The notes beneath the pieces were generated by a model. The model had not been told where the DNA came from. It was given only the letters and a program-made list of their open reading frames with translations, and did no database searches. From Alphaproteobacteria bacterium (lineage in GTDB: Bacteria > Pseudomonadota > Alphaproteobacteria > MPNO01), in contig OZ242200.1 of NCBI GenBank assembly GCA_965205995.1, positions 19,233 through 83,232 on the forward strand: a stretch of DNA of 64,000 nucleotides, given 5' to 3'. The position numbers and the translations under genes are program-made. Shown here piece after piece: positions 6,053-53,209 of the stretch (within the stretch, counting starts at the first letter, position 1; every line of letters starts with the position of its first letter).

Positions 6053-6550
6053 ATGGAGACCGCGACCGGCCGCAGCCTCGCCGACTGGATGGAGGCCCGC
6101 ATCGCCCGCTACGACACCCGGCGCTACGACTGGGACGCGCTCAAGTTCCAGGCCGATTACGATCCCAAATACCGGCGCGCGCAGATGCGCTATCTCGGCA
6201 CCGGCGGCACCGGGGTGACGGACGATTCCAACGCCGTGCCGTCGGAACATTTCACCTTCTCGACCATGGTGCTGCCGCCCGGCTGCGAGGGGCCGTCGCA
6301 TGTCCATGACGACGTAGAGGAGGTGTTCTTCATGCTGCGCGGCAGGATCCGCCTGACGCTGGAGCGCGACGGCGAGAGCTTCGAGACCGAGCTCGGCGAG
6401 CGCGATCTGATCTCGGTGCCGCCCGGGGTCTATCGCGGGCTGGTCAACGAAGGCGAGGAGGAGGCGCTGATGTGCGTGATGCTGGGCGCCTCCAGGCCGC
6501 GCATCCCGACCTACCCGCCCGACCACCCGCTCGCCAGGATCAAGCGCTAG
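6053..6550 (+). CDS. cupin domain protein
   Basis: 165 aa; cupin motifs PPGCEGPSHVHDDVEEVFFMLRG ... ISVPPGVYRG; AGGAGG RBS. Confidence 0.7.
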   Translation: METATGRSLADWMEARIARYDTRRYDWDALKFQADYDPKYRRAQMRYLGTGGTGVTDDSNAVPSEHFTFSTMVLPPGCEGPSHVHDDVEEVFFMLRGRIRLTLERDGESFETELGERDLISVPPGVYRGLVNEGEEEALMCVMLGASRPRIPTYPPDHPLARIKR

Positions 6551-6551
6551 C

Positions 6552-8206: not shown

Positions 8207-9845
8207 GCGGGTTGCGGCGGGCGAAATCGTCGCCGCGTTTCTCGAAGCCGCCGGGGTGGACGCCGCCTTCGGGGTGATCTCGATCCACAACATGCCGATG
8301 CTCGATGCGATCGGGCGGCGCAACCGCATCCGCTTCGTGCCGGCCCGCGGCGAGGCCGGCGCGGTCAACATGGCCGATGCCCACGCGCGCGTCTCCGGCG
8401 GGCTCGGCGTCGCCTTCACCAGCACCGGGACCGGCGCCGGCAATGCCTGCGGCGCGCTGGTCGAGGCGCAGACCGCCGGCACGCCGCTGCTCCATCTGAC
8501 CGGCCAGATCGAAACCGAATATCTCGACCAGGACCGCGGCTATATCCACGAGGCGCGCGACCAGCTGACCATGCTGCGCGGCGCCTCGAAGGCCGCCTTG
8601 CGGGTGCGCAGCGCCGCCGATTTGCCGGGCGCCCTGCGCGAGGCCGCGCGCGTCGCGCAGACCCCGCCCGCCGGCCCGGTGAGCGTCGAGATCCCGGTCG
8701 ACATCCAGGAGGCCTCGCTGGCGAGACCGGCCTCGCTGGCGCCGCTGGCGCCGGCCGATCCCGAACCCGACGCGGCGGCGCTCGATGATCTCGCCGACGC
8801 CCTGGCGGCGGCGCGGCGGCCGATGCTGTGGCTCGGCGGCGGCGCGCGCCGGGCGGGGGCCGAAGCCCGTGCGCTCGCGGGTCTCGGCTTCGGCATCGTC
8901 ACCAGCATCCAGGGGCGGGGCATCGTCGCCGAGGGCGGCCCGATGTCGCTCGGCGCTTGGAACTTCCAGCCGCCGGTCGAGGCGTTCTACGCGACCTGCG
9001 ACGCGATGCTGGTGGTCGGTTCCCGGCTGCGCGGCAACGAGACGCTCAAATACCGGCTCGCTCTGCCGAAACCGCTCTACCGGATCGACGCCGATCCCCG
9101 GGCCGACGGGCGGTCCTTCGCCAACGATATCTTCGTCTGCGGCGACGCGGCGCGGACGATGGCCGGGCTCGCCGCCCGGCTCGGCGGGCGGATGGCGGTC
9201 GACCCGGCGCTCGGCGCCGATCTCGCCGCCGCCCGCGAGGCCGCCGAGGCGGCGCTTCGCCAGACCCTCGGGCCCTACGAACGGCTGATGGACGACCTCC
9301 AGGCGGCGGTCCCCGACGATGTCGTCTGGGTGCGCGACATCACGCTTTCGAACAGCATGTGGGGCAACCGCGCGCCGCGCCTTTCGGGGCCGCGCGACGG
9401 GGTGCATGCGCTCGGCGGCGGCATCGGCCAGGCGCTGCCGATGGCGATCGGCGCCGCGCTCGCCGCGCCCGGGCGCAAGACCGTGGCGCTCGCCGGCGAC
9501 GGCGGGCTCTCGCTTTCGCTCGGCGAGATGTCCACCCTGGTGCAGGAGCGCGCCGATGTCGCCCTCATCGTGATGAACGACGGCGGCTACGGGGTGATCC
9601 GCAACATCCAGGACCGCAGCTTCGGCGGGCGAAACCTCTATACCGACATCGCGCTCCCCGATCTCGCGGCGCTCGCCGGCGGGCTCGGCCTGCCGTTCCG
9701 CCGCGTCGGCGATGCCGACGGCATGCGGCCGGCGCTCGACTGGGCGATCGCCGAGGACGGCCCGGCGATGGTCGAGATCGACATGACCGCAATCGGCCCC
9801 TTCGCGGCCCCCTTCGCCGGCCCGCCGGTGCGGGCGAAGGGATGA
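8199..9845 (+). CDS. thiamine diphosphate-dependent enzyme (acetolactate synthase/benzoylformate decarboxylase family)
   Basis: 548 aa; N-terminal Pyr domain, central domain, C-terminal PP domain with GDGG...N ThDP-Mg motif (LAGDGGLSLSLGEMSTL...MNDGGYG); 8-nt overlap with SDR. Confidence 0.85.
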   Translation: MSERVAAGEIVAAFLEAAGVDAAFGVISIHNMPMLDAIGRRNRIRFVPARGEAGAVNMADAHARVSGGLGVAFTSTGTGAGNACGALVEAQTAGTPLLHLTGQIETEYLDQDRGYIHEARDQLTMLRGASKAALRVRSAADLPGALREAARVAQTPPAGPVSVEIPVDIQEASLARPASLAPLAPADPEPDAAALDDLADALAAARRPMLWLGGGARRAGAEARALAGLGFGIVTSIQGRGIVAEGGPMSLGAWNFQPPVEAFYATCDAMLVVGSRLRGNETLKYRLALPKPLYRIDADPRADGRSFANDIFVCGDAARTMAGLAARLGGRMAVDPALGADLAAAREAAEAALRQTLGPYERLMDDLQAAVPDDVVWVRDITLSNSMWGNRAPRLSGPRDGVHALGGGIGQALPMAIGAALAAPGRKTVALAGDGGLSLSLGEMSTLVQERADVALIVMNDGGYGVIRNIQDRSFGGRNLYTDIALPDLAALAGGLGLPFRRVGDADGMRPALDWAIAEDGPAMVEIDMTAIGPFAAPFAGPPVRAKG

Positions 9846-9879
9846 GCGGACCCTTCGTTACGCGCCGGGGAACAAGCCC

Positions 9880-10677
9880 ATGCTGAAAATCGTCCTGATC
9901 GGCCGCGGCGCGATCGCCACCGAGGTGCTGGTACATATCCGGCCCGGCGCCGGGGTGAGCGTCACCGGCGCGATCGTCCGTCCCGGCCGGGTGGCCGACG
10001 CCCGTGCCGCCCTGCCGCCGGCGATCGAGGTGGCGAGCGCCATCGGCGATCTCGCGACCGCGCCCGACCTGATCGCCGAATGCGCCGGGCACGCGGCGGT
10101 TGCCGAATACGGCGAGGAGGCGCTGAGGCGCGGCATCGACTTTCTGGCGATTTCCATCGGCGCGCTCGCCGATGCGGATCTCCGCCGCCGGCTGGAGGCC
10201 GCGGCCGCGGCGGGCGGGGGCAAGCTGATCCTGCCCGCCGGCGCGGTCGCCGGCGCCGATGCCCTGGCGGCGGCGCGAATCGGCGGGCTGGAGCGCGTCG
10301 TCTACACCTCGCGCAAGCCGCCGGCGGCGTGGCGCGGAACCCCGGCCGAGGCGGCGCACGACCTCGACGCGCTTGTCGAGGCGACCGTGCTGTTCGAGGG
10401 CCCGGCGGATGCGGCGGCCACGCTCTACCCGCAGAACGCCAACGTGGCCGCCACCATCGCGCTCGCCGGCGCCGGGTTCGACCGCACCGAGGTCCGGCTG
10501 GTCGCCGACCCGGCGGCCGGCGGCAATATCCACACCGTCCGCGCCGAGGGGGCGTTCGGCGCCTTCGACATCGAAATCCGCGGCAAGCCGCTCCCCGACA
10601 ACCCGAAGACCTCGACGCTCGCCGCCCACAGCGTGGTCGCCGAGATCCTGCGCCGCGCCGCCGCAATGGAGATCTAG
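9880..10677 (+). CDS. aspartate dehydrogenase family protein (NadX-like)
   Basis: 265 aa; N-terminal Rossmann IGRGAIA, length and C-terminal region typical of L-aspartate dehydrogenase domain proteins. Confidence 0.65.
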   Translation: MLKIVLIGRGAIATEVLVHIRPGAGVSVTGAIVRPGRVADARAALPPAIEVASAIGDLATAPDLIAECAGHAAVAEYGEEALRRGIDFLAISIGALADADLRRRLEAAAAAGGGKLILPAGAVAGADALAAARIGGLERVVYTSRKPPAAWRGTPAEAAHDLDALVEATVLFEGPADAAATLYPQNANVAATIALAGAGFDRTEVRLVADPAAGGNIHTVRAEGAFGAFDIEIRGKPLPDNPKTSTLAAHSVVAEILRRAAAMEI

Positions 10678-10696
10678 CCGGCCGGTTCGGCCGCCC

Positions 10697-10796
10697 GCCC
10701 TTCGATACGCCCGCTGCGCGGGCTACTCAGGATGAGGGGAATCAAATGTCCTCATCCCGTGTAGCCCCGGACTTGATCCGGGGCGTATCGAGGGAC
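10697..10796. repeat. palindromic intergenic repeat element, copy A (full length, inverted orientation relative to copies C/E)
   Basis: GCCCTTCGATACGCC...GGGCTACTCAGGATGAGGGG-loop-CCTCATCCCGTGTAGCCCCGGACTTGATCCGG...GGCGTATCGAGGGAC; imperfect hairpin with terminal inverted arms; family recurs through window. Confidence 0.8.
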
Positions 10797-10991
10797 TGCC
10801 CCCACCCGGCATTTCGACCGAAGTGCCGCGGGCACGGGCGGGTCCTGCGATCCGCCGATGACGGGTGCGGCTTCGTCTTGCTCGTCCTGCGGGAATAAAT
10901 TGAATTATAAACCGCCCTCAAGTAGAAGACATGCGCTACAGCGCAACCGTGACATGGCCGCATTCCGGTCCAATCGAAGGAGCAGGACAAG

Positions 10992-12831: not shown

Positions 12832-13689
12832 TCAGCGCCGCGCGATGTAGAGCGCGCTGGCGACGATCGTCACCGCGCCGACCCCGGTCCAGACCGACGG
12901 TATCTCGGCGAACATGTAGAAGCCGATCAGGGCGGCGTAGATCAGCCGCAGGTACTCGAACGGCCCGACGAAGCTCGCCTCGCCGACGCAGAAGCCCTGG
13001 ACGAAGCAGACCATCCCGGCGCAGGTCAGCGCGCCGATCAGTGCCAGCAGCGCGAACTGCCCGGCATCGGGCGGCTGCCAGAGCGCGATGCTCGGCCCGG
13101 CGAACATCGCGATCCCGAAGACGTGGTAGTAGAACAGGATGCGGATCGCGGGCTCGGTGGTCGACAGGCGGCGGATGAAGATGATGCCGAGCGCGAACAG
13201 CACTGCCGCCGCCAGCGCGACCGCCCAGGCGATATCGAACGCCACCCCGCCCGGGCGCACCATCACCAGCACGCCGACGAAGCCGAAAGCGGTCGCCGCC
13301 CATCTTTGCCAGCGCACCGCCTCGCCGAGGATCAGCACCGCGAGCAAGGTGAGGAAGAGCGGGCGGCTGAAGGCGACCGCGGTCGCATCGGCGAGGAACA
13401 GATGGATCACCCCGTAATAGACCGCCGCCTGGCCGACCCCGGCGATCATCGCGCGCGCGAAATGGGTGCCGAGCCGCCTCGTGCGCCAGGTCTCGCGCCC
13501 CGCCTTCACGAACCAGGGCATCAACAGGACCATGCCGATGGCGTAGCGGAACAGCGCCATCTGGATCGGGTGGAAATCGGTGCCGAGCGTCTTCACCACC
13601 GCGTCGTTGGCCGACAGGAACAGCGAGCCCACGAGGACCCACACCGCGCCCTGCGCGTTGCCCGGCAAGGCGAGTATCCGCCCGATCAT
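12832..13689 (-). CDS. DMT family transporter (EamA/RhaT-like)
   Basis: 285 aa; 10 predicted TM helices, two EamA-like halves. Confidence 0.8.
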   Translation of the reverse strand: MIGRILALPGNAQGAVWVLVGSLFLSANDAVVKTLGTDFHPIQMALFRYAIGMVLLMPWFVKAGRETWRTRRLGTHFARAMIAGVGQAAVYYGVIHLFLADATAVAFSRPLFLTLLAVLILGEAVRWQRWAATAFGFVGVLVMVRPGGVAFDIAWAVALAAAVLFALGIIFIRRLSTTEPAIRILFYYHVFGIAMFAGPSIALWQPPDAGQFALLALIGALTCAGMVCFVQGFCVGEASFVGPFEYLRLIYAALIGFYMFAEIPSVWTGVGAVTIVASALYIARR

Positions 13690-14555
13690 GCGGCGCCCGG
13701 CGCGCGGCGCCGCGATTCGGCGCGCATTTGCTGGGCCGAGGCCGCGAAGATCACCGCCGCGCCGAGCCAGGTCCAGAGATCCAGCGCCTCGGCGAAGGCG
13801 AACCAGGCGAGCAGCGCGGTCAGCGGCAGCCGCGCGAAGTCGAAGGGGAAGACCGAAATCGCCTCCGCCGCGCGGTAGCTGTTGGTCATCGCGAACTGGC
13901 CGGCATTGGCGACCAGCGCGGTGACCGCCAGCCAGCCGAGCTGTTCGAGCGTCGGCGTCTGCCAGACGAACAGCGCCATCGCGAAGCTGACCGGCACGGT
14001 ATAGGCGATCATGTAGAACACGATGCGCTCGGTCGGCTCGGTCGCCGACAGCCGCTTCACCAGCACCCAGATCACCGCCATGCCGAGGGCGGCGGCGAGC
14101 GGCATCGAGAACTGCCAGTCAACGTCCTTGAAGCCCGGGCGCAGGATGACCAGCACGCCGAGGAAGCCGACGGCGAGCACCGCCGCGCGGCGCAGATCGA
14201 CCGCCTCGCCGAGGAACAGCATCGCCAGCATCGCGCCGAACAGCGGCGCGGTGAAGGTGAGCGAGACCGCGTCGGCGAGCGGCAGGAAGGCGACCGCGAG
14301 GAAGAACGCGGCCTGGGCCACCGCCGAGGCCATGCCACGGCCGAGGAACAGCCCGTGGCGCTCTGTCCGCAACCCCGCCGTGCCGCGCCTGAGGACGAAG
14401 GGGAGGAGCAGCGCCATGCCGATGATGCTGCGGTAGAACGAGGTCATCAGCGGGTGGAAGCCAATCTCCGCGAGATGGCGGATGCAGGCGGTCATGGCGG
14501 AGAAGAAGGCGGCGGCGAGCAGCATCCAGAGCGCGCCGCGCAGCGCCCCCGGCAT
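13686..14555 (-). CDS. DMT family transporter (EamA-like), tandem paralog 2
   Basis: ORF 13686..14681; start trimmed to Met43 (MPGALRGALWMLL...) giving ~290 aa; 4-nt overlap with downstream paralog. Confidence 0.7.
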   Translation of the reverse strand: MPGALRGALWMLLAAAFFSAMTACIRHLAEIGFHPLMTSFYRSIIGMALLLPFVLRRGTAGLRTERHGLFLGRGMASAVAQAAFFLAVAFLPLADAVSLTFTAPLFGAMLAMLFLGEAVDLRRAAVLAVGFLGVLVILRPGFKDVDWQFSMPLAAALGMAVIWVLVKRLSATEPTERIVFYMIAYTVPVSFAMALFVWQTPTLEQLGWLAVTALVANAGQFAMTNSYRAAEAISVFPFDFARLPLTALLAWFAFAEALDLWTWLGAAVIFAASAQQMRAESRRRAPGAA

Positions 14556-14586
14556 GCGGTCGAACAGATCCCGCAACGCAAGGGCC

Positions 14587-15531
14587 TTACCGGTCACGGC
14601 GCCGCTCGGCCGCCGATTCGCCCCGCGCCAGCAGGATCGAGGATACGCAGATCGCCCCGGCCCCGGCCCACACCCAGACATCCGGGATCTCGGCGAAGAA
14701 CAGGTAGCCTATCAGGGCGGCGATCGGCAGACGGATATAGTCGAACGAAACCACGACGGAGGCATCCGCGGCATGGAAGGCGCGGGCAAGGCAGCGCTGG
14801 CTGAAGGTGCCGAACACGCCGATCGCGACCAGATAGGGAAGGTGGTCGAGGCGCGGCCATTGCCAGACCGCGACCGCCGGCCCGGCGGAGAACAGCAACA
14901 GGAACAGCACCATGTACATCGCCATGGAGTCGGGCGAATCGTAACGCACGATATAGCGCGCCAGGATCGCATGCGTTGCCCCCACCAGCACCACCCCGAG
15001 GGCCAGGAAGACGCCCGGATTGAGCTCCGTGAAGCCGGGGCGGATGATGATCGTTGCGCCGACGATGCCGACCGCGATGGCGATCCAGCGCCTGGCCCGC
15101 GACTTCTCGCCGAGGATCACGATGGCGAGCAGGGTCGCCACCACCGGCCGGATGAAGGTGATCGCCGTGATATCGGCGATCGGCAGCAGGGTGACCGCGT
15201 AGAAGACGCAGAGCAGCCCGGCATAGCTGAGCGCGGTGCGCAGCACGTGGAAGTGGAGCTTGCGGGTCGCCATCGCCGCCACGCCGCGCCGCGCGAGCCA
15301 GGGGGCCATGGCGAGGAGGCCGAAGGCGGCGCGCCAGAAGACCACCAGAAGCACGTGGAGCTCGTCGGTCACCAGCCGCGACAGCGCCATCATCAGCAGG
15401 AAAAGCGTGCCCGCGGAGCTGAGCCAGAACGCGGCGCGCACGGCGCCCGGAAGGCCATGGAAGGAGGCGACGCGGCCGGCAAAATTCAAATCGGTCTTCC
15501 GTCTTGCGGCGAGGGCCCGGGACCCTACCAT
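14587..15531 (-). CDS. DMT family transporter (EamA-like), tandem paralog 3
   Basis: ORF 14587..15834 trimmed to Met102 (MVGSRALAARRK...), ~314 aa; N-terminal 100 aa of ORF is low-complexity and rejected. Confidence 0.65.
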   Translation of the reverse strand: MVGSRALAARRKTDLNFAGRVASFHGLPGAVRAAFWLSSAGTLFLLMMALSRLVTDELHVLLVVFWRAAFGLLAMAPWLARRGVAAMATRKLHFHVLRTALSYAGLLCVFYAVTLLPIADITAITFIRPVVATLLAIVILGEKSRARRWIAIAVGIVGATIIIRPGFTELNPGVFLALGVVLVGATHAILARYIVRYDSPDSMAMYMVLFLLLFSAGPAVAVWQWPRLDHLPYLVAIGVFGTFSQRCLARAFHAADASVVVSFDYIRLPIAALIGYLFFAEIPDVWVWAGAGAICVSSILLARGESAAERRRDR

Positions 15532-15540
15532 GCGGGCGGC

Positions 15541-16374
15541 ATGGCGGGGATGCGCGGGATGGCGGCTGAAAGCGGCGTTGCCGGCAAGACGGTCTGGATC
15601 ACCGGCGCCTCGGGCGGGCTCGGCGAGGCGCTGGCCTACGCCTTCGGCGCGGCCGGGGCGCGGCTGATCCTGTCGGCCCGGCGCGACGGCGAGCTCGCCC
15701 GGGTGGCTGGTGCGGTCGCCGATGCGGGCGGCATCGCGCGGGCGCTGAAGATGGACCTCGCCGATCCCGATTCGATCGCCGCGGCGGCGGCCGAGGTGGC
15801 GCGCCGGGAAGGCAGGGTCGACATCCTGGTCCACAACGCCGGGCAGACCCAGCGGGCGCTGGTCGCCGATGCCGGGATCGACATCTACCGGCGTCTGTTC
15901 GAGGTCAATTTCTTCGGCCCCCTTGCGCTCACCAGGGCGGTGCTGCCGGCGCTCGCCGGAGGCGGGCGGATCGTCGCGATCTCCAGCATCGCCGCCTATT
16001 ACTCATCGCCGTACCGGTCGGGCTACAACGCCTCCAAGAAGGCGCTGCACGGGCTGTTCGACGCGTTCCGGGCGGAAGCGCATCGCGACGGAATTTCCGT
16101 GCTGCTGGTGGTGCTCGGCAGCGTCAGGACCCGGGTCTCGGTCAACGCGCTGCGCGGCGACGGCAGCCGCTACGGGCGGATGGACCCGGCGATGGCGGAA
16201 GGCATGGACCCCGCGCCGGTCGCCCGCAAAATCCTCCGGGCGACGATGGGAAGGCGCGAGGAGATCGCCATCGCGCCGCTCGGCCAGCGCTGGCTGATGT
16301 GGCGCAAGACCTGGTTCCCGCGCCGCGCCGCGCGCGCGGTCCGGCTCCGCCCGCGGGACGGCGACCGTGCTTGA
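15541..16374 (+). CDS. SDR family oxidoreductase
   Basis: C-terminal 278 aa of ORF 14482..16374: GKTVWITGASGGLGEALA, NAGQ, YxxxK (SPYRSGYNASKKAL); start ATG 15541 only ~10 nt from divergent DMT start. Confidence 0.75.
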   Translation: MAGMRGMAAESGVAGKTVWITGASGGLGEALAYAFGAAGARLILSARRDGELARVAGAVADAGGIARALKMDLADPDSIAAAAAEVARREGRVDILVHNAGQTQRALVADAGIDIYRRLFEVNFFGPLALTRAVLPALAGGGRIVAISSIAAYYSSPYRSGYNASKKALHGLFDAFRAEAHRDGISVLLVVLGSVRTRVSVNALRGDGSRYGRMDPAMAEGMDPAPVARKILRATMGRREEIAIAPLGQRWLMWRKTWFPRRAARAVRLRPRDGDRA

Positions 16375-27216: not shown

Positions 27217-28491
27217 ATGGAGTGGGTGATGGTGCTGATGCCGGTCGGTCTTCTGATCCTCGGCTTCCCGATCTTCATCATCCTGCTCGCCACCTCGGCG
27301 ATCATCCTCCTGTTCTTCATGGACATACCGCTGACCGCGGTCCACCAGGTGATGTTCGGCAGCGTCGACAAGTTCGCGCTGATGGCGGTCCCGTTCTTCA
27401 TCTTCGCCGGCGAGTTGATGGGCATGGGGGGCATCTCCCAGCGCATCATCGCCTGGGTGATGTCGGTGATCGGCGGGTTGCGCGGCAGCCTGCCGCTGAC
27501 CACCGTCGGCACCTGCACGATCTTCGGCGCGATCTCGGGGTCCAGCCCGGCGACCGTGGCCGCGGTCGGAAGGCTGATGTACCCGCCGCTGCGCGAGAAG
27601 GGCTACAACGAGAAATTCTCGACCGGCGTGCTGACCTCCTCGGGCGCGATCGCCATCGTCATCCCGCCCTCGATCAGCATGATCCTCTACGGCGCCTCGG
27701 CCGAGCAATCCGTATCCCACCTGTTCATCGCCGGCATCTTTCCCGGGCTGCTGATGTCGCTGATGATGGGCGGCTACATATTCTGGTACGCCACTAGACG
27801 CGATATCCGCGAAGGGCAGCCCTTCGAATGGGGCCGGTTCCTGCGCGCGAGCAAGTCCGGCGTCTGGGCGCTCGGCACCCCGGTCATCATCCTCGGCGGA
27901 ATCTATGCCGGTGTCTTCTCGCCCACCGAGGCGGCGGGAATCGCCTGCGTCTACGCGATCATCGTGACCAAGTTCATATACGGCGACATCTCCTGGCGCG
28001 GGATCTGGGACGTCTCGGTCAACTCGATGTATCTGACCGCCCAGGTGCTGATCATCGTCGCCGGCGCCGGCGTGTTCTCCTGGCTGCTTACCGTCAGCGG
28101 CATTCCACAAGCCGCGGTTGCCGCGATCCAGGCGCTCGACGTCCCGCCCTGGGTCATCCTGATGATCATCAACGTGTTCCTGCTGATCGTCGGCTGCCTG
28201 CTGGATCCGGGATCGGCGATCCTGGTGCTGACCCCGCTGCTCGCCCCCATCGCGACGGCGATCGGCGTCGACCTGGTGCATTTCGGGGTCATCATGACGG
28301 TGAACCTGGCGATCGGCATGTTCACCCCGCCCTTCGGGCTCAACATCTTCGTCGCCCAGGCGCTGTTCAAGGCGCCCTTGAAGAGCATCTATCCGGGGCT
28401 GGTGCCGTTCATCATAATCAACATCCTGGCGCTGGGGATCGTCACATACGTGCCGGAGATGTCGCTCTATCTGTTGAAGTTCCTGGGGTAG
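27217..28491 (+). CDS. TRAP transporter large permease (DctM)
   Basis: 424 aa, ~12 TM, DctM family conserved blocks (FFIFAGELMGMGGISQR, IVIPPSI). Confidence 0.9.
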   Translation: MEWVMVLMPVGLLILGFPIFIILLATSAIILLFFMDIPLTAVHQVMFGSVDKFALMAVPFFIFAGELMGMGGISQRIIAWVMSVIGGLRGSLPLTTVGTCTIFGAISGSSPATVAAVGRLMYPPLREKGYNEKFSTGVLTSSGAIAIVIPPSISMILYGASAEQSVSHLFIAGIFPGLLMSLMMGGYIFWYATRRDIREGQPFEWGRFLRASKSGVWALGTPVIILGGIYAGVFSPTEAAGIACVYAIIVTKFIYGDISWRGIWDVSVNSMYLTAQVLIIVAGAGVFSWLLTVSGIPQAAVAAIQALDVPPWVILMIINVFLLIVGCLLDPGSAILVLTPLLAPIATAIGVDLVHFGVIMTVNLAIGMFTPPFGLNIFVAQALFKAPLKSIYPGLVPFIIINILALGIVTYVPEMSLYLLKFLG

Positions 28492-28523
28492 CGGCGCCCT
28501 CTTCGATGCGTGGCTTCCGCCCC

Positions 28524-28567
28524 CCGTCGTGGTCGGCGGAGGCCGGCCATCCACGAGTTTTTTCTGC
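28524..28567 (+). terminator. putative Rho-independent terminator after dctM
   Basis: TCGTGG...GGCCGGCC...CCACGA stem followed by TTTTTTCT. Confidence 0.35.
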
Positions 28568-28582
28568 GGCGAGGGACGGCAA

Positions 28583-28625
28583 GGGAGGAAAAGAGAAAAC
28601 GTGGGTGGTCGGGCCAAGCCCGACC
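28583..28625 (-). terminator. Rho-independent terminator after AOR gene (minus strand)
   Basis: On minus strand GGTCGGGC-TTG-GCCCGACC perfect 8-bp stem followed by ACCCACGTTTTCTCTTTTCC. Confidence 0.55.
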
Positions 28626-28675
28626 ATGACGGAGTGAGGAGAGACGCTGCGGCCCCGTCGCCCGGTTGACGCGGC

Positions 28676-30397
28676 TCAGGCGAGCGCTTCGGCGAGCAGT
28701 TTGCGGACGTGGGCGTTGACGTCCCGGCTGCGGTGGCGCGCCTTCTTTCCGGTCGGGTGCAGCCCCTCGGCGTGGAAGAACTCGGGAAGCTCGTCGTCCT
28801 CCTCGGTGAAGCCGGCCCGGCGGTTGAACTCCCATTCGTCGCGCAGGGTCTCGTGGCCCAGCCTGCGGTAGAACGATTCGTCGAGCTCGGTGCCGTGCGC
28901 GTCGTTGAGCGCGTTGATCATGAAGTCGATATTCTCGTTGGTCACGGTGCGCCCGAACACGCAGAGGCCGAGCGAATCGGCGGTCGCGCACAGCGTCTGC
29001 ACGTCGAAGCTCGCCTCGGTCAGCTCCTCGGTCGTCTTGCCGTCGCAGACGAAGGCCGGGATGTTGCCCGTGGTGTGGTCGGCGCCCTGGGCGGTGACCA
29101 TCATCGAGATGCCGGTGACCTCGATCACCCGCGGGTCGTAGGCGCTGATGCCCTGGCTCTTGATGACCGGGACGCGGGCGACCTGGTAGTGCTCGCCCAC
29201 CCTGCGGGTTCCCTGGGCGAACATCCTGCCGCGCTCGTTGCCGTCGCGGATGTCCTGCAGCACGTCGGCCATGAAGGCGGGATCGCCGAACTCGCCGAGC
29301 CCGGCCTCCATCAGGACGCCGATGGTGGCGCCGATCTCGATCGAATCGACCCCGAGGTCGTTGGCGATGTGGTTGAGCCGGGCGACGTCGTCCGGATCCT
29401 CCAGCCCGCAATTGGTGCCCATCAGCCCGAGGGTCTCGTATTCGAGCGGCGAGACGATCTCCTCGCCCTCCGGCCCGACATAGATGTTGGAGCAGCGGAT
29501 CATGCAGCCCGGCATGCAGGCATGGGTCGGCTCGCCGCCGCGCGACAGGTTGCGCTCGCGGATATGCTCGCCGCCGAGCTTGAAGGTCTCCTTCTCCTTG
29601 TCGACCTGCTGGCCGGAGGAGAAGTTGCGGGTCGGCAGCCCGCCGATCGTGTTGGTGAAGTCGCCGACCATGGCGGTGCCGAGATTGCGCAGCGCGTTGA
29701 TCGCCGCGTCGGCGTCCAGCATCTTGTTGTAGTCGCGCACCGAGCCCATCAGCTTCTTGCGGTCGTGGAAGCTCGGCATCCGGTCGCGGTCGACGACGAT
29801 CGCCTTGACCTTCTTGCTGCCCATCACCGCGCCGACCCCGCCGCGCGCGGCGATGCGGACCGGCCGCCCCTCGGGATCGGTGAACGAGATGCCGGCGATC
29901 AGCCCCATATACTCGCCGACCGGGCCGCAGAGGCCGAGGCTCACCTTGTCGCCGTATTTTTCGTGGAGCAGCTTCGCCGCCTCGATATTGCCCTTGCCCA
30001 TATAGGGTCCGGCGTCCTCGAAGGTGATCTCGCCGCCCTTGTGGATGTAGATCACCGTCCAGTCGGCGGAGGCGCCGTAGAGGTTGAACCCGGCGATCTC
30101 GATCTGTCCCAGCGCGAAGGCGAAGGTGCCGCCCGAATTGGCCTCCTTGACGCCGCCGGTGAGCGGGCTCTTGCAGCCGATCGAGAGCCGGTTGGCGTTG
30201 GAGAAATTGGAGCCGGCGAACGGCCCGGCCGAGAAGATCAGCGGGTTCTCCGGCGACAGCGGGTCGACCTCGGCCGCGCCCTTCGCCAGCAGCGTCTTGG
30301 CGATCAAATGGCGGCCGGCGCGGACGATCGCCTCGCCATGCAGCTCCTCGGTCTCGATCGATCGGTCGTCGAGGTCGATGTGAAGATATTTTCTCAT
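28676..30397 (-). CDS. aldehyde:ferredoxin oxidoreductase (tungsten/molybdopterin AOR family)
   Basis: 573 aa; N-terminal MRKYLHIDLDDRSIETEEL AOR N-domain, [4Fe-4S] cysteines in HACMPGCMIRCSNIY, AOR domains 2/3. Confidence 0.8.
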   Translation of the reverse strand: MRKYLHIDLDDRSIETEELHGEAIVRAGRHLIAKTLLAKGAAEVDPLSPENPLIFSAGPFAGSNFSNANRLSIGCKSPLTGGVKEANSGGTFAFALGQIEIAGFNLYGASADWTVIYIHKGGEITFEDAGPYMGKGNIEAAKLLHEKYGDKVSLGLCGPVGEYMGLIAGISFTDPEGRPVRIAARGGVGAVMGSKKVKAIVVDRDRMPSFHDRKKLMGSVRDYNKMLDADAAINALRNLGTAMVGDFTNTIGGLPTRNFSSGQQVDKEKETFKLGGEHIRERNLSRGGEPTHACMPGCMIRCSNIYVGPEGEEIVSPLEYETLGLMGTNCGLEDPDDVARLNHIANDLGVDSIEIGATIGVLMEAGLGEFGDPAFMADVLQDIRDGNERGRMFAQGTRRVGEHYQVARVPVIKSQGISAYDPRVIEVTGISMMVTAQGADHTTGNIPAFVCDGKTTEELTEASFDVQTLCATADSLGLCVFGRTVTNENIDFMINALNDAHGTELDESFYRRLGHETLRDEWEFNRRAGFTEEDDELPEFFHAEGLHPTGKKARHRSRDVNAHVRKLLAEALA

Positions 30398-30488
30398 TCC
30401 GTCGGTATCCCGGGTGATATGCGATTGGCGCGATTGGCCGCCATATTGCGGGATTTAGGCGGGCCGTTTCCAGTTCTTTCGCCGTCGC

Positions 30489-32069
30489 TCAGTTTTCGCC
30501 CGCTTCGCCGCCTGCCCGCCACAGCGCCTTCAGCGCATCGCGGCGGATCTTGCCGCGATGCGATTTGGGCAGGCTGTCGACCACGAAAACCGATTTCGGC
30601 AGCTTGAAATCGGGCAGCTGCCCGGCGCAGCCGGCGATGACGGCGTCGGGTTCCACCGCCGCGCCGGGGCGGGCGACGACGAAGGCGGCGATCTCCTCCC
30701 CGTAGATCGGGTCGGGCACGCCGATGGCGGCCGCCTCCTCGATCCCGGGCAGGCGCATCAGCACCGCGTCGATCTCGAGCGGCGCGATATTGACCCCGCC
30801 GCGGATGATCAGATCCTTGACCCGGCCGGTGACGGTGACGAAGTCGTCCCCATCGGCGACGCCGATATCGCCGGTCCTCAGCCAGTCGTCGAGCCGGGTT
30901 GCGCGCATGTCCCGGTATTCCCCCGCCGGCGTGATCGAGGCGGTCGCGGTCTGCGGGCCGCGGATCGCGATCTCGCCCTCGACGCCAGGCGGGCAGGGCG
31001 CGCCGTCGGCATCGAGGATCGCGAAGCCGATATGCCGGGCCGGCTGTCCGACGGTGCCGAGCTTGCGCCTGTGGTGGCGGTTGCCGCAGAGCCAGCCGCC
31101 TTCGGAGGCGCCGTAGAACTGCAACAGGGTGATGCCGTAGCGCTCCTCGAAACGCCGCCAGCGGTCGGGCGACAGCGGCGCCGAGCTCGACGTCATCAGC
31201 CGCAGCGAGGCGATCCGCGCGGGATCGATCTCGACCGGCCGGTTGAGCAGCATGTTGATCACCGTCGGCACCCCGACCGCCACCGTAATCCGGTGGCGGT
31301 CGATCCAGTCGAAGAAGCGCCGGCGCGAGAACCGCCGCGCGATATGCAAAGTGAGCCCGGTCTGCAGGAACGGCATCAAGGCGAGGATCTGCGGCGAGAG
31401 CCAGCTGAAGGTGCGGTATTCGAGCAGCCGGTCGTCCCCCGTCATGCCGGTGAAGTCGAGGCTCGAAAGCCCGCAGAGCCAGAGCCCGAGATGGTCCCAT
31501 TCGACGCATTTCGGACGATCCGTGGTGCCGGACGTCGAGAAGATGCAGGCGGTGTCGGTGGGCGCGTTGGCGGCGCCCGGCGCGGCCCGCCGGTCGAGCG
31601 CGGCGGCGGCTGCGAAGAGCTCGCCCGGTTCGTCGTCGCCCCCCGGCCAGATGGAGAACCGCGCCGAGGGGTAGCCCAGCCCGCCGATGATCTCCTCGCC
31701 GTCGAGCTCGCTGTGCCAGAGCACCAGCCGCGGGTCGATATAGGTCACGATCGCGCGCAGATGCGGGATGCTCATCTCGACATGGAACGGGCAGGCGATC
31801 GCCCCGATTCGCCAGACCGCGAGGAAGACGAGCAGCTTCTCGATCCGCTCCCCGGCGAGCACCACCACCCTGTCGCCGCGCGCGACGCCCTCCGCCTCCA
31901 GCCAGCCGGCGATTCGCTCGACCGCGTCGCGGAGGCCCCGGAAGTCGATTTCCCCGCCGCCGTCGAGGTCGACGATCGCGGTTTTTCGCGGATGCGCCGA
32001 GTCATGCCGGGCGAGGGTCTCGGCGATGCTGCGAAACGGTATGGCGAGGTCTCGCGCGGTCTGGTCCAT
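30489..32069 (-). CDS. class I adenylate-forming enzyme (acyl-CoA synthetase/AMP-dependent ligase)
   Basis: 526 aa; AMP-binding motif IFSTSGTTDRPK, YGASEGG, GDIG...D...GR.KD. Confidence 0.8.
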   Translation of the reverse strand: MDQTARDLAIPFRSIAETLARHDSAHPRKTAIVDLDGGGEIDFRGLRDAVERIAGWLEAEGVARGDRVVVLAGERIEKLLVFLAVWRIGAIACPFHVEMSIPHLRAIVTYIDPRLVLWHSELDGEEIIGGLGYPSARFSIWPGGDDEPGELFAAAAALDRRAAPGAANAPTDTACIFSTSGTTDRPKCVEWDHLGLWLCGLSSLDFTGMTGDDRLLEYRTFSWLSPQILALMPFLQTGLTLHIARRFSRRRFFDWIDRHRITVAVGVPTVINMLLNRPVEIDPARIASLRLMTSSSAPLSPDRWRRFEERYGITLLQFYGASEGGWLCGNRHHRRKLGTVGQPARHIGFAILDADGAPCPPGVEGEIAIRGPQTATASITPAGEYRDMRATRLDDWLRTGDIGVADGDDFVTVTGRVKDLIIRGGVNIAPLEIDAVLMRLPGIEEAAAIGVPDPIYGEEIAAFVVARPGAAVEPDAVIAGCAGQLPDFKLPKSVFVVDSLPKSHRGKIRRDALKALWRAGGEAGEN

Positions 32070-32142
32070 CGTGCGAAACTAGTCGAAACGCCCGCCGAAT
32101 CGAAGCCTCGCCGCCCGGGGATCGCCGCGCCATCGCATATGG

Positions 32143-32170
32143 TTGACTGGCTCTTGCGAGTCCCTATAAT
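32143..32170 (+). promoter_or_regulatory. near-consensus sigma70-type promoter TTGACT-16nt-TATAAT upstream of rpsM region
   Basis: TTGACTggctcttgcgagtcccTATAAT read directly; followed by AGGAGG RBS and GTG at 32238. Confidence 0.5.
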
Positions 32171-32328
32171 CCGGCCACCCGAATGGGACATCCATTTTCG
32201 GAACCCCGGACTTCATCCCGATGCAGGAGGCCGCGTCGTGGCGCGAATAGCTGGCGTTAACCTGCCTAATCCGGCCACCCGAATGGGACATCCATTTTCG
32301 GCTGGACTTCATCCCGCAAGGCCGCGTC

Positions 32329-32357
<29 letters not shown>
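32167..32357. repeat. imperfect tandem duplication (100 nt + 91 nt) of rpsM leader + first 10 codons
   Basis: TAATCCGGCCACCCGAATGGGACATCCATTTTCGG...GACTTCATCCCG...CCGCGTCGTGGCGCGAATAGCTGGCGTTAACCTGCC occurs twice head-to-tail (32167-32266, 32267-32357); copy 1 retains AGGAGG RBS, copy 2 has it degraded. Confidence 0.8.
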
Positions 32358-32746
<389 letters not shown>

Positions 32747-32768: not shown

Positions 32769-33161
32769 ATGGCACGACAGACCGCAACGCGCGTCCGCCG
32801 CCGCGAGCGTAAGAACATCACCGCCGGCGTCGCGCATGTGAATGCCTCCTTCAACAACACCAAGATCACCATCACCGACGCCCAAGGCAACACGATCTCG
32901 TGGTCGTCGGCGGGATCGCAGGGGTTCAAGGGATCGCGCAAATCGACCCCCTACGCGGCGCAGATCGCGGGGGAAGATGCCGGGCGGAAGGCCATGGAGC
33001 ATGGCGTGAAGACGCTCGAAATCCAGGTCAAGGGGCCGGGCTCGGGACGCGAATCGGCGCTGCGCGCGCTTCAGGCGGTCGGCTTTTCGATCACCTCGAT
33101 TCGCGACGTGACGCCCATCCCGCATAACGGCTGCCGCCCGCGCAAGCGCCGCCGGGTCTGA
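32769..33161 (+). CDS. rpsK: 30S ribosomal protein S11
   Basis: 130 aa; [22 protein letters not shown]...[13 protein letters not shown] canonical S11. Confidence 0.95.
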
Positions 33162-33246: not shown

Positions 33247-34269
33247 ATGTCGATTATTCACAGAAACTGGCAAGAGCTGATCAAGCCGAGCAAGCTCGAG
33301 ATCCTTCCCGGCACCGACCCGGCCCGGTTCGCGAGGATCGTCGCCGAGCCGCTGGAGCGCGGATTCGGCGTCACCCTCGGCAACGCGCTGAGGCGCGTGC
33401 TGCTGTCGTCGCTGCAGGGCGCGGCATGCACGGCGCTCCAGATCGACGGGGTGCTGCACGAATTCTCCTCCATCCCCGGGGTGCGGGAGGACGTCACCGA
33501 TATCGTGCTCAACGTCAAGAGCCTCGCGCTGCGCATGCATGGCGACGGGCCGAAGCGCATGTATCTCGAAGGCACCGGACCCGGCGAGATCACCGCCGGC
33601 ATGATCGAGGCCGGCCACGACATCGAAATCGTCGAACCCGACATCGCGATCTGCACCCTCGACGAGGGCGCCAAGATTTCCATGGAGCTCACCGTCGATG
33701 CGGGCAAGGGCTACGTCCCGGCGGTCCAGAACCGCGCCGCCGACGCCCCGATCGGACTGGTGCCCGTGGATGCCGTGTTCAGCCCGGTCCGCAAGGTGGC
33801 CTTCCAGGTGGAGAACACCCGGGTGGGCCAGATCACCGACTACGACAAGCTGTCGCTCGACATCGAGACCAACGGCGTGATCTCGCCGGAGGACGCCGTG
33901 GCGCTGGCGGCCCGCATCCTGCAGGACCAGCTCCAGCTCTTCATCAACTTCGAGGAGCCCTCGACCAGGGCCGAGGAGATCCTGCCCAGCGAGCCGTCCT
34001 TCAACAAGAACCTGCTGCGCAAGGTCGACGAGCTGGAACTCTCCGTGCGCTCCGCCAACTGCCTCAAGAACGACAACATCATCTATATCGGCGACCTCGT
34101 GCAGAAGAGCGAGCAGGAGATGCTGCGCACCCCCAATTTCGGGCGCAAATCCTTGAACGAGATCAAGGAGGTGCTCGCCCAGATGGGGCTCGAGCTCGGC
34201 ATGGAGATCCTCGAATGGCCGCCCGAGAACATCGAAGATCTCGCCCGGCGGCTGGACGAGCCCTATTAG
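33247..34269 (+). CDS. rpoA: DNA-directed RNA polymerase subunit alpha
   Basis: 340 aa; [22 protein letters not shown]-domain and C-terminal alphaCTD ([21 protein letters not shown]). Confidence 0.95.
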
Positions 34270-34299: not shown

Positions 34300-34737
34300 A
34301 TGCGACACCGGCTGAAGGGCCGCAAGCTAAACCGGACCAGCACGCACCGGATCGCCATGTTCCGCAACATGGCGGCGGCTCTGGTGAAGCACGAGCAGAT
34401 CACCACAACCCTGCCCAAGGCGAAGGAGCTCCGGCCCATCGTCGAGCGGCTGATCACGCTGGGCAAGCGCGGCCCGTCCGACCTGCACGCCCGCCGCCAG
34501 GCGATCCGCAGGCTCGCCGGCGACGCCAAGCTGGCCGACAAGCTGTTCACCACGCTCGCCGAGCGCTATGCCGAGCGCAAGGGCGGTTACACGAGGGTGT
34601 TGAAGGCCGGCTTCCGCTACGGCGATTCCGCGCCGATGGCGGTGATCGAGCTGGTCGACCGCGACCCCGAGGCGAAGGGGCTCGATTCCGGGCCGGTGCC
34701 GGAACGCGACACGGTCCCGGAGGAAGCGGCCGCCTGA
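34300..34737 (+). CDS. rplQ: 50S ribosomal protein L17
   Basis: 145 aa; [46 protein letters not shown] canonical. Confidence 0.95.
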
Positions 34738-49431: not shown

Positions 49432-51726
49432 TCACGCGGCGCCGTTCTCTGCCTCCCCGATCGCCTTGAGCACCTTCGGCGGCGACATCGGCTGTTCGCG
49501 GAGCCGGATTCCGATGGCGTCGTTGATGGCGTTGGAGATCGCCGCGATCGGTGGGATGATCGGCACCTCGCCGATGCCGCGCACCCCGTAAGGGTGGTTG
49601 GGGTTGGGCACCTCGACGATTTCCGTCCCGATGAAGGGAACGTCCGAGGCCACCGGCACCCGGTAGTCGAGGAAGCCCGGGTTCTGCAGCACCCCGTCCT
49701 CGCCGTAGATGTATTCCTCGTTGAGCGCCCAGCCGATCCCCTGCACCGCGCCGCCCTGGAACTGGCCCTCGACATAGGCCGGGTGGATCGCCTTGCCGGT
49801 ATCCTGGATCACCGTGTAGCGGAGGATCTTGACCAGCCCGGTCCTCCGGTCGACCTCGACATCGACGATATGGGTGCCGAAACCCGGCCCGGCGCCGTCT
49901 GCGGTGATCTCCGCGTGACCCGCGATGGGGCCGCCGGTCATGCCCGACCGCTGCGCGATCTCGCCGATGGAAAGCGGCTCGAACTCGCCGACATTGGAAC
50001 TCGCCGGACGCGCGTGGCCGTCCTCCCAGACCACCCCGTCGACCGGCACGCCCCAGGTCTGCGCGGCGCGCTCGCGCATCACGTCGATCGCCTTGCGCGC
50101 GGCGACGGTCACCGCCATGCCGCTCGCGAAGGTGCCGCGGCTGCCGGCGGTCACGAAATTGAAGCCGAGCGCCTGGGTGTCGCCGATCTGCGGGCGCACC
50201 CTGTCGAAATCGATGCCGAGCTCCTCGGCCACGATCATCGCCATCGCGGCGCGCGACCCGCCGGCGACGTCTATGGTGCCGAGGACCACGGTCACGCTGC
50301 CGTCCTCGTTGACGTTGAGCGTGGTGGTGGTTTCCTTGCCGATGTTGAACCAGAAACCGGTCGCGATGCCGCGGCCCTGGTCCGGGCCGAGCGGTTCCTT
50401 GAGATGCGGATGCTCCTGCGCCTTCCTGAGCGTGGCCTCGTAGCCGATCGGCCCGAAGGTCGGCCCGTAATAGGTCTGGGTCCCTTCCTTGGCGGCGTTC
50501 AGCAGGCGGAACTCGATCGGGTCGATGCCAAGCTCGATCGACATCTCGTCGAGAATGCTTTCGACGCCGAAGATCGAAATCGGCGCGCCGGGCGCGCGGT
50601 AGGCGGCGACCTTGGGCCGGTTCACGGTGATGTCGTTGCCGATCACCTTGACGTTCTCGACGTCGTAGCGGGTGAACGTGCACATCGCCGCCATCGGCAC
50701 CGAGGAGCCCGGGAAGGCGCCGGCCTGGAAGTCGAGCTGGGCCTCGGCGGCGACGATGCGGCCGTCCTTGCTGCAGCCGATCTTGATCCGCGTATGCGCG
50801 CCCGAGGTCGGGCCGGTCGAGCGGAACACGTCCTCCCGGCTCATCGTCATCTTGACCGGCCGGTTGGATTTCTTCGAAAGGACGATGGCGGGCGGTTCGA
50901 GATAGACGTTGTTCTTGCCGCCGAACCCGCCGCCGAGTTCGGTCGGGATCACGCGGATCTTCGAGATGTCCATCTGCAGCAGCTTGGCGCATTGCGCGCG
51001 GATCACGAAATGGCCCTGGGTCGCGGTATAGACCTCGACCTGGCCGTCCTCGGAATAGCTGGCGATCGAGGCCTGGGGCTCGATATAGCCCTGATGCACC
51101 GGCTTGGTGTTGAAATCGCGCTCGATGACGAGGTCGGCCTCGGTGAAGCCCTTTTCCACATCGCCCTTGGCGAAATTGAACACCTTGGCGAGGTTGGACG
51201 CCTTCTCCGGCGTCGGCTTGACGCCTTCGGTGATCTGCTCCTCGTGCAGTAGCGGCGCGTCCTCGGCCATTGCCGCCACGGGGTCGATCACATGCGGCAG
51301 CACCTCGTAGTCGACCTCGATCAGCTTGACCGCCCGCCTCGCGATCGCCTCCGAGGTGGCGGCGACGGCGGCGACCGGATGGCCGTCATAGAGCACCTTC
51401 TCGCGCGCCATCATGTTGCGGGTGACATCGCGGAAATTGACGATGAGCTCGCCCGCGGCGGCGTATTCCACCGGCATTTCCGGGAAATCGTCGCGGGTGA
51501 CGACGGCCTTCACGCCGGGCAGCGCCTCGGCCTTTTCGGTGCGGATGGCGAGGACCCGCGCATGGGCGTGCGGGCTGCGCACCACGCGCCCGTAGAGCTG
51601 GCCCGGCAGGTTGATGTCCGCGCCGTAGCGCGCGCGGCCGGTGACCTTGTCGACCCCGTCGGGGCGGATCGGCCGTGTGCCGACGACCTTGAGATCCTTC
51701 TCCTCGTATTTGAGCGTCGTCGACAT
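49432..51726 (-). CDS. xanthine dehydrogenase family molybdopterin-binding large subunit (CoxL-like, not form-I CODH)
   Basis: 764 aa from MSTTLKYEEKDLKVVGTRPIRPDGVDKVTGRARYG (GGGAGG RBS); active-site loop AAYRAPGAP rather than AYRCSFR. Confidence 0.85.
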   Translation of the reverse strand: MSTTLKYEEKDLKVVGTRPIRPDGVDKVTGRARYGADINLPGQLYGRVVRSPHAHARVLAIRTEKAEALPGVKAVVTRDDFPEMPVEYAAAGELIVNFRDVTRNMMAREKVLYDGHPVAAVAATSEAIARRAVKLIEVDYEVLPHVIDPVAAMAEDAPLLHEEQITEGVKPTPEKASNLAKVFNFAKGDVEKGFTEADLVIERDFNTKPVHQGYIEPQASIASYSEDGQVEVYTATQGHFVIRAQCAKLLQMDISKIRVIPTELGGGFGGKNNVYLEPPAIVLSKKSNRPVKMTMSREDVFRSTGPTSGAHTRIKIGCSKDGRIVAAEAQLDFQAGAFPGSSVPMAAMCTFTRYDVENVKVIGNDITVNRPKVAAYRAPGAPISIFGVESILDEMSIELGIDPIEFRLLNAAKEGTQTYYGPTFGPIGYEATLRKAQEHPHLKEPLGPDQGRGIATGFWFNIGKETTTTLNVNEDGSVTVVLGTIDVAGGSRAAMAMIVAEELGIDFDRVRPQIGDTQALGFNFVTAGSRGTFASGMAVTVAARKAIDVMRERAAQTWGVPVDGVVWEDGHARPASSNVGEFEPLSIGEIAQRSGMTGGPIAGHAEITADGAGPGFGTHIVDVEVDRRTGLVKILRYTVIQDTGKAIHPAYVEGQFQGGAVQGIGWALNEEYIYGEDGVLQNPGFLDYRVPVASDVPFIGTEIVEVPNPNHPYGVRGIGEVPIIPPIAAISNAINDAIGIRLREQPMSPPKVLKAIGEAENGAA

Positions 51727-51728
51727 GG

Positions 51729-52205
51729 TCAAACCTCCCTCATCTCGCGGGCCGCGTCGGCCACCGCCTCGACGATCTTGTGATAGCCGGTGCAGCGGCA
51801 CAGATTGCCGGCGAGCCAGTAACGGATTTCGGTCTCGGTCGGGTCGGGGTTGTGCTCCAGCAGCGCGCGCGAGGCGACCAGCAGGCCCGGGGTGCAGATG
51901 CCGCATTGCAGGGCGGCGTGTTCGAGGAACTTGCGTTGCAACGGATGCAGCTCCTCGCCTTCCGCCATGCCCTCGATGGTCTCGACCCGCTTGCCCTCGA
52001 TTTCGACGCCGAGCATCAGGCAGGAGCACACGACCCGCCCGTCCACGGTGACCGAGCAGGCGCCGCAATCGCCGGTGCCGCAACCCTCCTTGGTGCCGGT
52101 CATCACGAGTTCGTCGCGCAGCACCGAAAGCAGCGTCTGGTCGCTCTCGCAGAGGAAATCGACCTCGTCGCCATTGATCGTCGTCGTTACGTGATAGCGC
52201 GCCAT
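51729..52205 (-). CDS. (2Fe-2S)-binding small subunit of Mo-hydroxylase (CoxS-like)
   Basis: 158 aa; CGTGDCGAC plant-type and CGICTPG...CRCTGY second cluster motifs. Confidence 0.9.
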   Translation of the reverse strand: MARYHVTTTINGDEVDFLCESDQTLLSVLRDELVMTGTKEGCGTGDCGACSVTVDGRVVCSCLMLGVEIEGKRVETIEGMAEGEELHPLQRKFLEHAALQCGICTPGLLVASRALLEHNPDPTETEIRYWLAGNLCRCTGYHKIVEAVADAAREMREV

Positions 52206-53065: not shown

Positions 53066-53209
53066 GTGGTTTCGCCTCCCCTTCCGCCCGGTTCCGATGC
53101 GGGCCTGATTCGGTCCGCGCCAACTCTGGGCAGTCATATACCGGCCCGTGCGGGGCAAGGAAAGCGCCGCGGCAAACAGCCCTTCTGGAGAACGCGGCGC
53201 GGAAAGGAA

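Follow-up and report, generated by a model that had tools for sequence, protein, structure and literature searches.

The aldehyde oxidoreductase (AOR) or WOR family of tungsten enzymes comprises 92 clades, with a physiological role known for only a handful of them (PMC13328260). In the same 2026 classification, single-subunit (Class I) enzymes account for 65% of the family and 55 of the 92 clades, and the three-subunit AorABC type for about 5%. Class I includes the AOR of Pyrococcus furiosus (PfAOR; structure 1aor, WOR clade 87) and, in clade 83, the enzymes of Brevibacillus massiliensis (BmWOR) and Haloferax volcanii (WOR83; structure 9q1t), both from aerobic hosts; BmWOR uses a separately encoded ferredoxin and has been proposed to be an aldehyde detoxifier (PMC9424855). 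The Class III enzyme AorABC of Aromatoleum aromaticum (8c0z) is a proteobacterial member which oxidises aldehydes to acids in catabolism, and for whose AorB subunit Arndt et al. give identities of 50% to PfAOR, 34% to FOR and 31% to WOR5 (PMC6365974). Here we describe an AOR-family gene and the acyl-CoA synthetase (ACS) gene beside it in a stretch of 64,000 nucleotides (hereafter the window) from an alphaproteobacterium (contig OZ242200.1 of assembly GCA_965205995.1).

The AOR gene (28676-30397) and the ACS gene (30489-32069) both lie on the minus strand, ACS upstream and AOR downstream, and encode proteins of 573 and 526 amino acids. The AOR, so far uncharacterised, belongs to a known enzyme family and has its commonest, single-subunit form, and the gene pair itself is unsurprising. 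We consider it fairly probable that the AOR oxidises an aldehyde to the acid and that the ACS then activates this acid to an acyl-CoA, as a lineage-specific coupling of the two enzymes. The identities, coordinates and shared direction that the first-pass annotation had assigned to the two genes all hold, with both open reading frames exact on the minus strand and the Pfam domains fitting. Third-position GC is 0.93 in the AOR frame and 0.91 in the ACS frame (window GC is about 68%), which separates them from many spurious overlapping open reading frames and marks them as real genes.

The aldehyde oxidoreductase and its subfamily

The 573-residue protein is predicted to be a cytoplasmic, single-subunit aldehyde oxidoreductase of the AOR/WOR family, with a bis-pyranopterin tungsten (or molybdenum) centre and a [4Fe-4S] cluster. 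It contains both AFOR_N (4.5e-54) and AFOR_C (1.4e-57) Pfam domains and matches PfAOR over its full length (E 1.7e-52). The AlphaFold2 model (pLDDT 82, pTM 0.88) has the three-domain fold of PfAOR, with a Foldseek TM score of 0.88 to 1aor and of 0.82-0.88 across 1aor, the bifurcating WOR 9mqx, the Clostridium autoethanogenum AFOR 9g7j, FOR (1b25) and 8c0z, and its only significant fold matches in the PDB are nine AOR-family chains. Model confidence is low near the active-site loops 247-264 and 438-445.

Eleven cofactor and second-shell residues of PfAOR (Arg76, Asn93, Arg182, Thr243, Tyr312, Glu313, Asp343, Tyr427, His448, Asp489 and Cys494) are conserved in the window AOR and invariant across 121 orthologues. 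In its own numbering, the pterin and Mg residues R70, N87, R181, N346-D-L-G-V-D351 and D474-S-L-G-L-C479 are present and invariant, as are T241, E321, Y420 and H441, the counterparts of PfAOR Thr243, Glu313, Tyr427 and His448, which are hallmark residues of aldehyde-oxidising members (PMC13328260, PMC12096430). The loss of pterin- or tungsten-site residues, named beforehand as the finding that would speak against the assignment, is thus not seen. Four cysteines that are invariant in the 121 orthologues (Cys294, Cys298, Cys302 and Cys479) are candidate ligands for one [4Fe-4S] cluster, for which PfAOR has Cys288, Cys291, Cys295 and Cys494.

In other respects the protein differs from the enzymes characterised so far. 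Its putative cluster motif, C294-x3-C298-x3-C302, is invariant across the clade and stands in place of the Cx2Cx3C of characterised members, and HMMER puts the cysteine triplet in two different registers against different structures. The position of PfAOR Tyr452 is an asparagine (Asn445) in the whole clade, though Tyr452 has been described as 'highly conserved', and that of Asp338 is likewise asparagine throughout, as it is in 9mqx. The dimer-bridging iron ligands of PfAOR are missing, with Glu332 aligning to an arginine and His383 unaligned, and overall the window AOR shares 30% of its residues with PfAOR according to BLASTP and 34% when aligned by HMMER. The host also differs, being a mesophilic proteobacterium.

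By BLASTP the AOR is 28-32% identical to 1aor, 9mqx, 9g7j, 1b25 and 9q1t, which are 34-56% identical to one another. Because values of 28-32% are comparable to those that split subfamilies in Arndt et al., we place the protein in a separate subfamily; judged by sequence comparison, this is a deep and uncharacterised one that spans Alpha-, Beta- and Gammaproteobacteria as well as Thermus. It is not a clade 83 enzyme, since its identity to 9q1t is only 29-30% (142 bits), no nearer than to other subfamilies. AorB is a weak match (136 bits by phmmer, 26% identity in the structural alignment), and in contrast to the roughly 50% identity reported between AorB and PfAOR (PMC6365974), the window AOR reaches 30%.

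A homology search yielded 120 clusters with at least 72% identity to the AOR, and a scan of one genome per species found 453 stretches encoding homologues. We examined the orthologue loci of the best 80 of these 453 (68-95% identical; 80-81 loci in the neighbourhood counts, numbered here with the prefix L), almost all of which are from metagenome-assembled genomes of Alpha-, Beta- or Gammaproteobacteria, the closest being titled Defluviicoccus sp. A literature search for this AOR clade in Defluviicoccus found nothing. The earlier description of an AOR as uncommon in such proteobacteria is fair as a matter of frequency, but not as a picture of the clade, which is large and coherent, with 453 species-representative matches.

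The best cultured relative found is TTP0122 (WP_011174442.1, TT_RS10740) of Thermus thermophilus HB27, 51% identical over the full length. It is a stand-alone member of the same subfamily and shares the motifs CMPGCxIxC, NDLGxD, GADHTxGN and DSLGLC with the window AOR, but is a megaplasmid gene of a thermophilic Deinococcota host and has no ACS neighbour. The gene (L090, pTT27 113286-114998) has no metabolic neighbours; a type III-B Cmr CRISPR gene set precedes it by about 750 nt. The 2005 genome paper lists TTP0122 only as an AOR paralogue (PMC1274311), and we found no characterisation of it in the literature beyond that listing.

The AOR belongs to Class I (WorL only), the commonest type in the family. 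No gene for an Fe-S or FAD subunit adjoins it in the window, and the gaps flanking the genes (91, 184 and about 170 nt) are so short that there is no space for a further gene beside the AOR; unlike at the Aromatoleum locus, AorA (four Fe-S clusters), AorC (FAD) and aorD/E-like genes are all lacking beside it. Clustering of flanking open reading frames at the 80-81 orthologue loci revealed no conserved partner and nothing shared past lineage-level synteny. Among 70 upstream and 71 downstream immediate neighbours tallied by Pfam, no Fer4 family is among the top families listed and Pyr_redox_2 occurs in only three, and the motif CxxCxxCxxxCP is absent from all frames within 6 kb of the AOR gene at 81 loci. 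The first-pass annotation was thus right that AorA and AorC are absent, and the coordinate check disclosed no partner subunit beside the AOR, but its premise that such enzymes usually come with these subunits does not stand: Class I makes up 65% of the family, none of the 81 loci has a conserved partner, and their absence is the norm rather than an anomaly.

One relative has a candidate redox neighbour. In L086 (the genome of L015), a gene for a 397-residue Pyr_redox_2 protein (NDH-2-like, FAD/NAD; 9627-10820) lies between ACS and AOR, where it may give the AOR of this one lineage an outlet for its electrons. We rejected it as an AorC-like partner because it was found in that genome only.

Pairing with the acyl-CoA synthetase and proposed role

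The ACS is a standard two-domain ANL enzyme of the class I adenylate-forming type, with AMP-binding (2.9e-64) and AMP-binding_C (4e-18) Pfam domains and no carrier or reductase domain detected by Pfam in its 526 residues. Its translation contains TSGTTDRPK, GRVKDLII and RGKIRR, which we take to be the ANL core motifs A3 (TSGTTGxPK), the A8 hinge and the A10 lysine. The nearest structures are oxalyl-CoA synthetase 6qjz (7e-58) and malonyl-CoA synthetase 4fuq, and the protein falls below every NCBIfam cut-off (PRK06187, 287 bits against 476; malonyl-CoA synthase, 255 against 558). With small margins over feruloyl and fatty-acyl ligases, and all NCBIfam scores below cut-off, a substrate assignment was dropped.

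Wherever the sequence of a close relative reaches far enough upstream (L001-L003 and L005-L014), ACS again precedes AOR, and AOR is 93-100% and ACS 79-100% identical to the window copies. The identities of the two proteins fall in parallel, such that ACS is 79-84% identical where AOR is 93-95%, and 64-67% where AOR is 80-83%. Sister lineages of the latter group have ACS beside AOR in other genomic places (L015/L086, L017/L088 and L016/L089), in the order ACS, Pyr_redox_2 gene, AOR in L086; ACS, AOR, class II aldolase in L088; and ACS remnant, AOR in L089. In all three, an orthologous family III CoA-transferase of 391 residues (80-92% mutually identical) is encoded just upstream of ACS on the opposite strand (L086, 6644-7819; L088, 3031-4206; L089, 4374-5549), separated from it in L088 by a gene for a Rieske VanA-like oxygenase. 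This CoA-transferase is absent from the window and from L006-L014; its presence near ACS in three sister lineages strengthens the CoA-thioester theme.

The pairing is nevertheless dispensable. In L006 an insertion of about 1.4 kb (5310-6741), encoding an IS110-family transposase (DEDD_Tnp_IS110 and Transposase_20), interrupts the ACS gene, and the AOR, 94% identical, is intact. In L089 the ACS (5795-6854) lacks its first 174 codons and has a frameshift at about residue 348, so that the remnant is called as two fragments of 131 and 137 amino acids, and the AOR (81%) is again intact; the frameshift alone could be a long-read sequencing error. The ACS-AOR pairing is thus a chemically sensible association at the level of lineages (Defluviicoccus-like and sister lineages), and the notion that it forms a general module is not borne out, the pair being lineage-specific and its ACS disrupted in two relatives.

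Taken together, these observations suggest a role in which an aldehyde would be oxidised to a carboxylic acid at the bis-pyranopterin tungsten (possibly molybdenum) centre of the AOR, with the two electrons leaving one by one via the enzyme's own [4Fe-4S] cluster and reaching a soluble acceptor, most likely a ferredoxin, whose gene lies elsewhere. The ACS would then convert the acid product to its CoA thioester, as the CoA-transferase might also do in the sister lineages, and the aldehyde would thereby be both detoxified and channelled into CoA-dependent catabolism. We infer the metal, substrate and electron acceptor of the AOR, the direction in which it works, its coupling to the ACS and the co-transcription of the two genes. 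There is a precedent for such a route, whose last step is the conversion of phenylacetate to phenylacetyl-CoA. The oxidation that precedes it, of phenylacetaldehyde to phenylacetate, has been shown for Aromatoleum (PMC6365974).

Several observations weigh against this proposal. At the other 60-odd orthologue loci, where the AOR is 68-78% identical, there is no ACS beside it, so that AOR function does not generally need ACS, and the two broken ACS genes in L006 and L089 stand next to intact AORs. Neither the family models nor the nearest structures single out a substrate for the ACS; the Cx3Cx3C motif and the asparagine at the Tyr452 position make the cluster environment and the pocket unlike those of every characterised enzyme; and the 64-kb window has no Moco/Wco (molybdenum or tungsten cofactor) riboswitch and no gene for a ferredoxin, a tungstate or molybdate transporter, or cofactor biosynthesis. 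Conserved patches in the ACS-AOR spacer (described below) could be a promoter of the AOR's own, which weakens the case for co-transcription.

The loss and absence of ACS are what would be expected if the two genes were neighbours by descent only, with the AOR acting as a general, independently transcribed aldehyde detoxifier and the ACS belonging to an unrelated pathway. The neighbours at the orthologue loci are highly variable, the spacer motifs may be a separate promoter, and an ACS orthologue with 56% identity occurs without AOR (L087), in a gene context that is itself uninformative. But neither the order nor the orientation of the pair changes across at least four lineages with differing surroundings, there is no terminator between ACS and AOR, and the chemistry fits, since the acid product of AOR is the substrate class of ACS. 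We therefore regard shared descent without shared function as possible but doubtful, and prefer the sequence of oxidation followed by CoA activation.

The first-pass annotation had also suggested that the two enzymes activate and reduce a carboxylic acid, the ACS activating it and the AOR reducing it to the aldehyde, in the manner of carboxylic acid reductase (CAR). The gene order from ACS to AOR would be compatible with this, and AOR-family enzymes can reduce acids in vitro (PMC9295118, PMC6365974). AORs act, however, on non-activated acids and need very-low-potential donors (PMC9295118, PMC6365974), and the reverse reaction of the Aromatoleum enzyme is reported to be very slow and to proceed only with Ti(III) citrate at low pH (PMC6365974). 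CAR, with its adenylation, carrier and reductase domains, does likewise tie an adenylate-forming enzyme to the interconversion of acids and aldehydes, but the window ACS is a plain two-domain CoA ligase and its redox partner a pterin enzyme working on free acids and aldehydes, and the two systems share no mechanism. Moreover, the window encodes a Rieske VanA-like oxygenase and a luciferase-like monooxygenase, which suggest a metabolism that uses oxygen, and it shows no low-potential donor system. Acid reduction is accordingly very improbable, and oxidation followed by CoA activation is the simpler reading.

The departures within the AOR itself raise the question of whether its subfamily acts on aldehydes at all, or on some other substrate, as do BamB and the sulfonate-oxidising WOR5. 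At only 28-32%, identity to the characterised members falls short of the level at which named subfamilies are set apart, and the altered cysteine spacing, the asparagine at Tyr452 and the low model confidence at loops 247-264 and 438-445 would all be consistent with a different substrate. Against this, Thr243, Glu313, Tyr427 and His448 of the aldehyde-oxidising members are all invariant, and comparisons of sequence and of structure both find their best matches in AOR sensu stricto and FOR rather than BamB or WOR5. A substrate other than an aldehyde is thus very unlikely, and oxidation of an aldehyde, coupled in these lineages to formation of its acyl-CoA, is the role that we favour.

The locus and its surroundings

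The ACS-AOR spacer (30398-30488, minus strand) is 91 nt long. A scan called neither a terminator nor a promoter within it, and it has no stable structure (fold z +0.28). In an alignment with L007-L014, L088 and L089, the patches CTGG...AAATCCCGCAATATGG are kept out to the sister lineages, and on this evidence the AOR might have a promoter of its own here. Both the spacing and the hexamers are imperfect in the window copy, so we did not adopt an interpretation of the patches as sigma-54 or sigma-70 sites.

The AOR gene is followed by an intrinsic-terminator-like hairpin and U-tract (28587-28631, minus strand), 45 nt 3' of its stop codon. The minus-strand stem extends from 28631 to 28600, with an inner GC-rich stem of 9 bp (28626-28606), a folding energy of -18.6 kcal/mol and z = -3.1, and UUUUCUCUUUUCC (28599-28587) comes directly after it. 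The terminator claimed here by the first-pass annotation is therefore real as a structure, and had been missed by the simple terminator scan. The lone terminator-like site which that scan did report (30613-30590, minus strand) was dismissed, lying inside the ACS coding sequence and being a single site against a shuffle mean of 2.2.

Upstream, ACS diverges from the ribosomal alpha operon, and the two are separated by an intergenic region (32070-32237) that contains the rpsM promoter and a conserved ACS-proximal block. The promoter is strong and sigma-70-like (TTGACT-16-TATAAT, 32143-32170, plus strand; 11/12 match), and the block, about 50 nt long, is conserved in an alignment of six relatives. 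The operon is transcribed on the plus strand, with the rpsM leader starting at about 32170, followed by rpsK (32769-33161), rpoA (33247-34269) and rplQ (34300-34737), and then by DegP-like and MgsA-like genes. This agrees with the earlier observation that the pair abuts the alpha operon. In Alphaproteobacteria, rpsM is normally preceded by secY and adk, neither of which is among the window genes scanned, and the pair had been thought to stand in their place.

Comparison with L089 indicates a different history. That locus shares the window's downstream synteny, consisting of AOR, DctM, DctQ, an isochorismatase and a xanthine-dehydrogenase-family gene, but upstream of its ACS are genes for the CoA-transferase, Fic, TatCBA and seryl-tRNA synthetase, where the window has rpsM. 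The synteny matching downstream but not upstream places a breakpoint directly upstream of ACS. Most likely, then, a chromosomal rearrangement in the Defluviicoccus-like lineage moved the alpha operon beside the pair. This fits better than an insertion, and the pair probably did not displace secY and adk. The junction next to the alpha operon varies within that lineage, L006 and L008 having additional genes there.

The 5' end of rpsM (32167-32500) contains two local tandem duplications. The first comprises about 91-100 nt of the leader and the first 30 nt of rpsM, with 32267-32357 repeating 32167-32266 with small deletions, and the second is a 61-nt repeat within the gene (32440-32500). As a result, the coding sequence of ribosomal protein S13 is truncated and frameshifted. 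Neither duplication occurs in L001, L002, L003 or L005, four independent assemblies of this organism, so that an error of assembly in the window is the most likely cause. Each of the two leader copies is marked by a sub-threshold Alpha_RBS match. No Moco/Wco riboswitch or other Rfam family was found at gathering score in the whole window, and at E<=1 the region 28400-32500 yielded nothing beyond these two weak Alpha_RBS matches and one to radC that we ascribe to chance.

The tungstate and molybdate transporter genes tupABC, wtpABC and modABC were not found within the 64-kb window. It does encode two molybdopterin enzymes of the xanthine-dehydrogenase/CO-dehydrogenase family, which imply that the organism makes the pterin cofactor. 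One is at 18550-20970, with its Pfam domains taken from the L001 counterpart; the other, at 49432-53158 and 62367-62819, has an FAD subunit and a CoxG-like gene nearby.

Converging on the AOR gene from the other side are the TRAP membrane genes dctQ and dctM (26535-28491, plus strand), without an adjacent dctP solute-binding gene; an RND pump gene, encoding AcrB (23059-26334, plus strand), ends 200 nt upstream of them. Relatives often have a different carboxylate transporter gene in this convergent position, for example the TctA/TctB fusion of L007. L011 and L013 have a convergent gene of TctA/TctB type by the size of the open reading frame, the domain scan having covered L007 only.

Elsewhere in the window, genes for a squalene-hopene cyclase and a squalene/phytoene synthase lie side by side (1646-4593) in a hopanoid biosynthesis locus, and three EamA-family transporter genes follow one another on the minus strand (12832-15834). 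A cluster at 53853-60903, with acyl-CoA dehydrogenase, ECH_2 (3-hydroxyisobutyryl-CoA hydrolase-like) and 3-hydroxyisobutyrate dehydrogenase-like genes, resembles valine catabolism, and hydantoinase/oxoprolinase A and B genes come after it.

Possible implications for tungsten biochemistry in aerobic hosts

A broader reading, which we advance only tentatively, is that the subfamily of about 570 residues with the Cx3Cx3C motif is an oxygen-compatible, partner-less tungsten (or molybdenum) AOR that is routine in oxygen-respiring Proteobacteria (marine, groundwater and sponge-associated) and in aerobic Thermus, and that in the present lineage it has been wired to a CoA ligase for aldehyde assimilation. 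Just one aerobic species is credited with producing an AOR in a 2025 review (PMC12096430); if this reading is true, AOR-type tungsten biochemistry would extend beyond that single producer into abundant environmental heterotrophs.

The subfamily is highly conserved, is found in genomes with oxygenase-type genes, and always lacks partner subunits, and the ACS and CoA-transferase neighbours hint at a testable role, the conversion of an aldehyde to an acyl-CoA. One of its members is encoded in Thermus thermophilus HB27, which is genetically tractable. The value of the locus lies in drawing attention to a gap in the enzymology of tungsten and molybdenum that is open to experiment.

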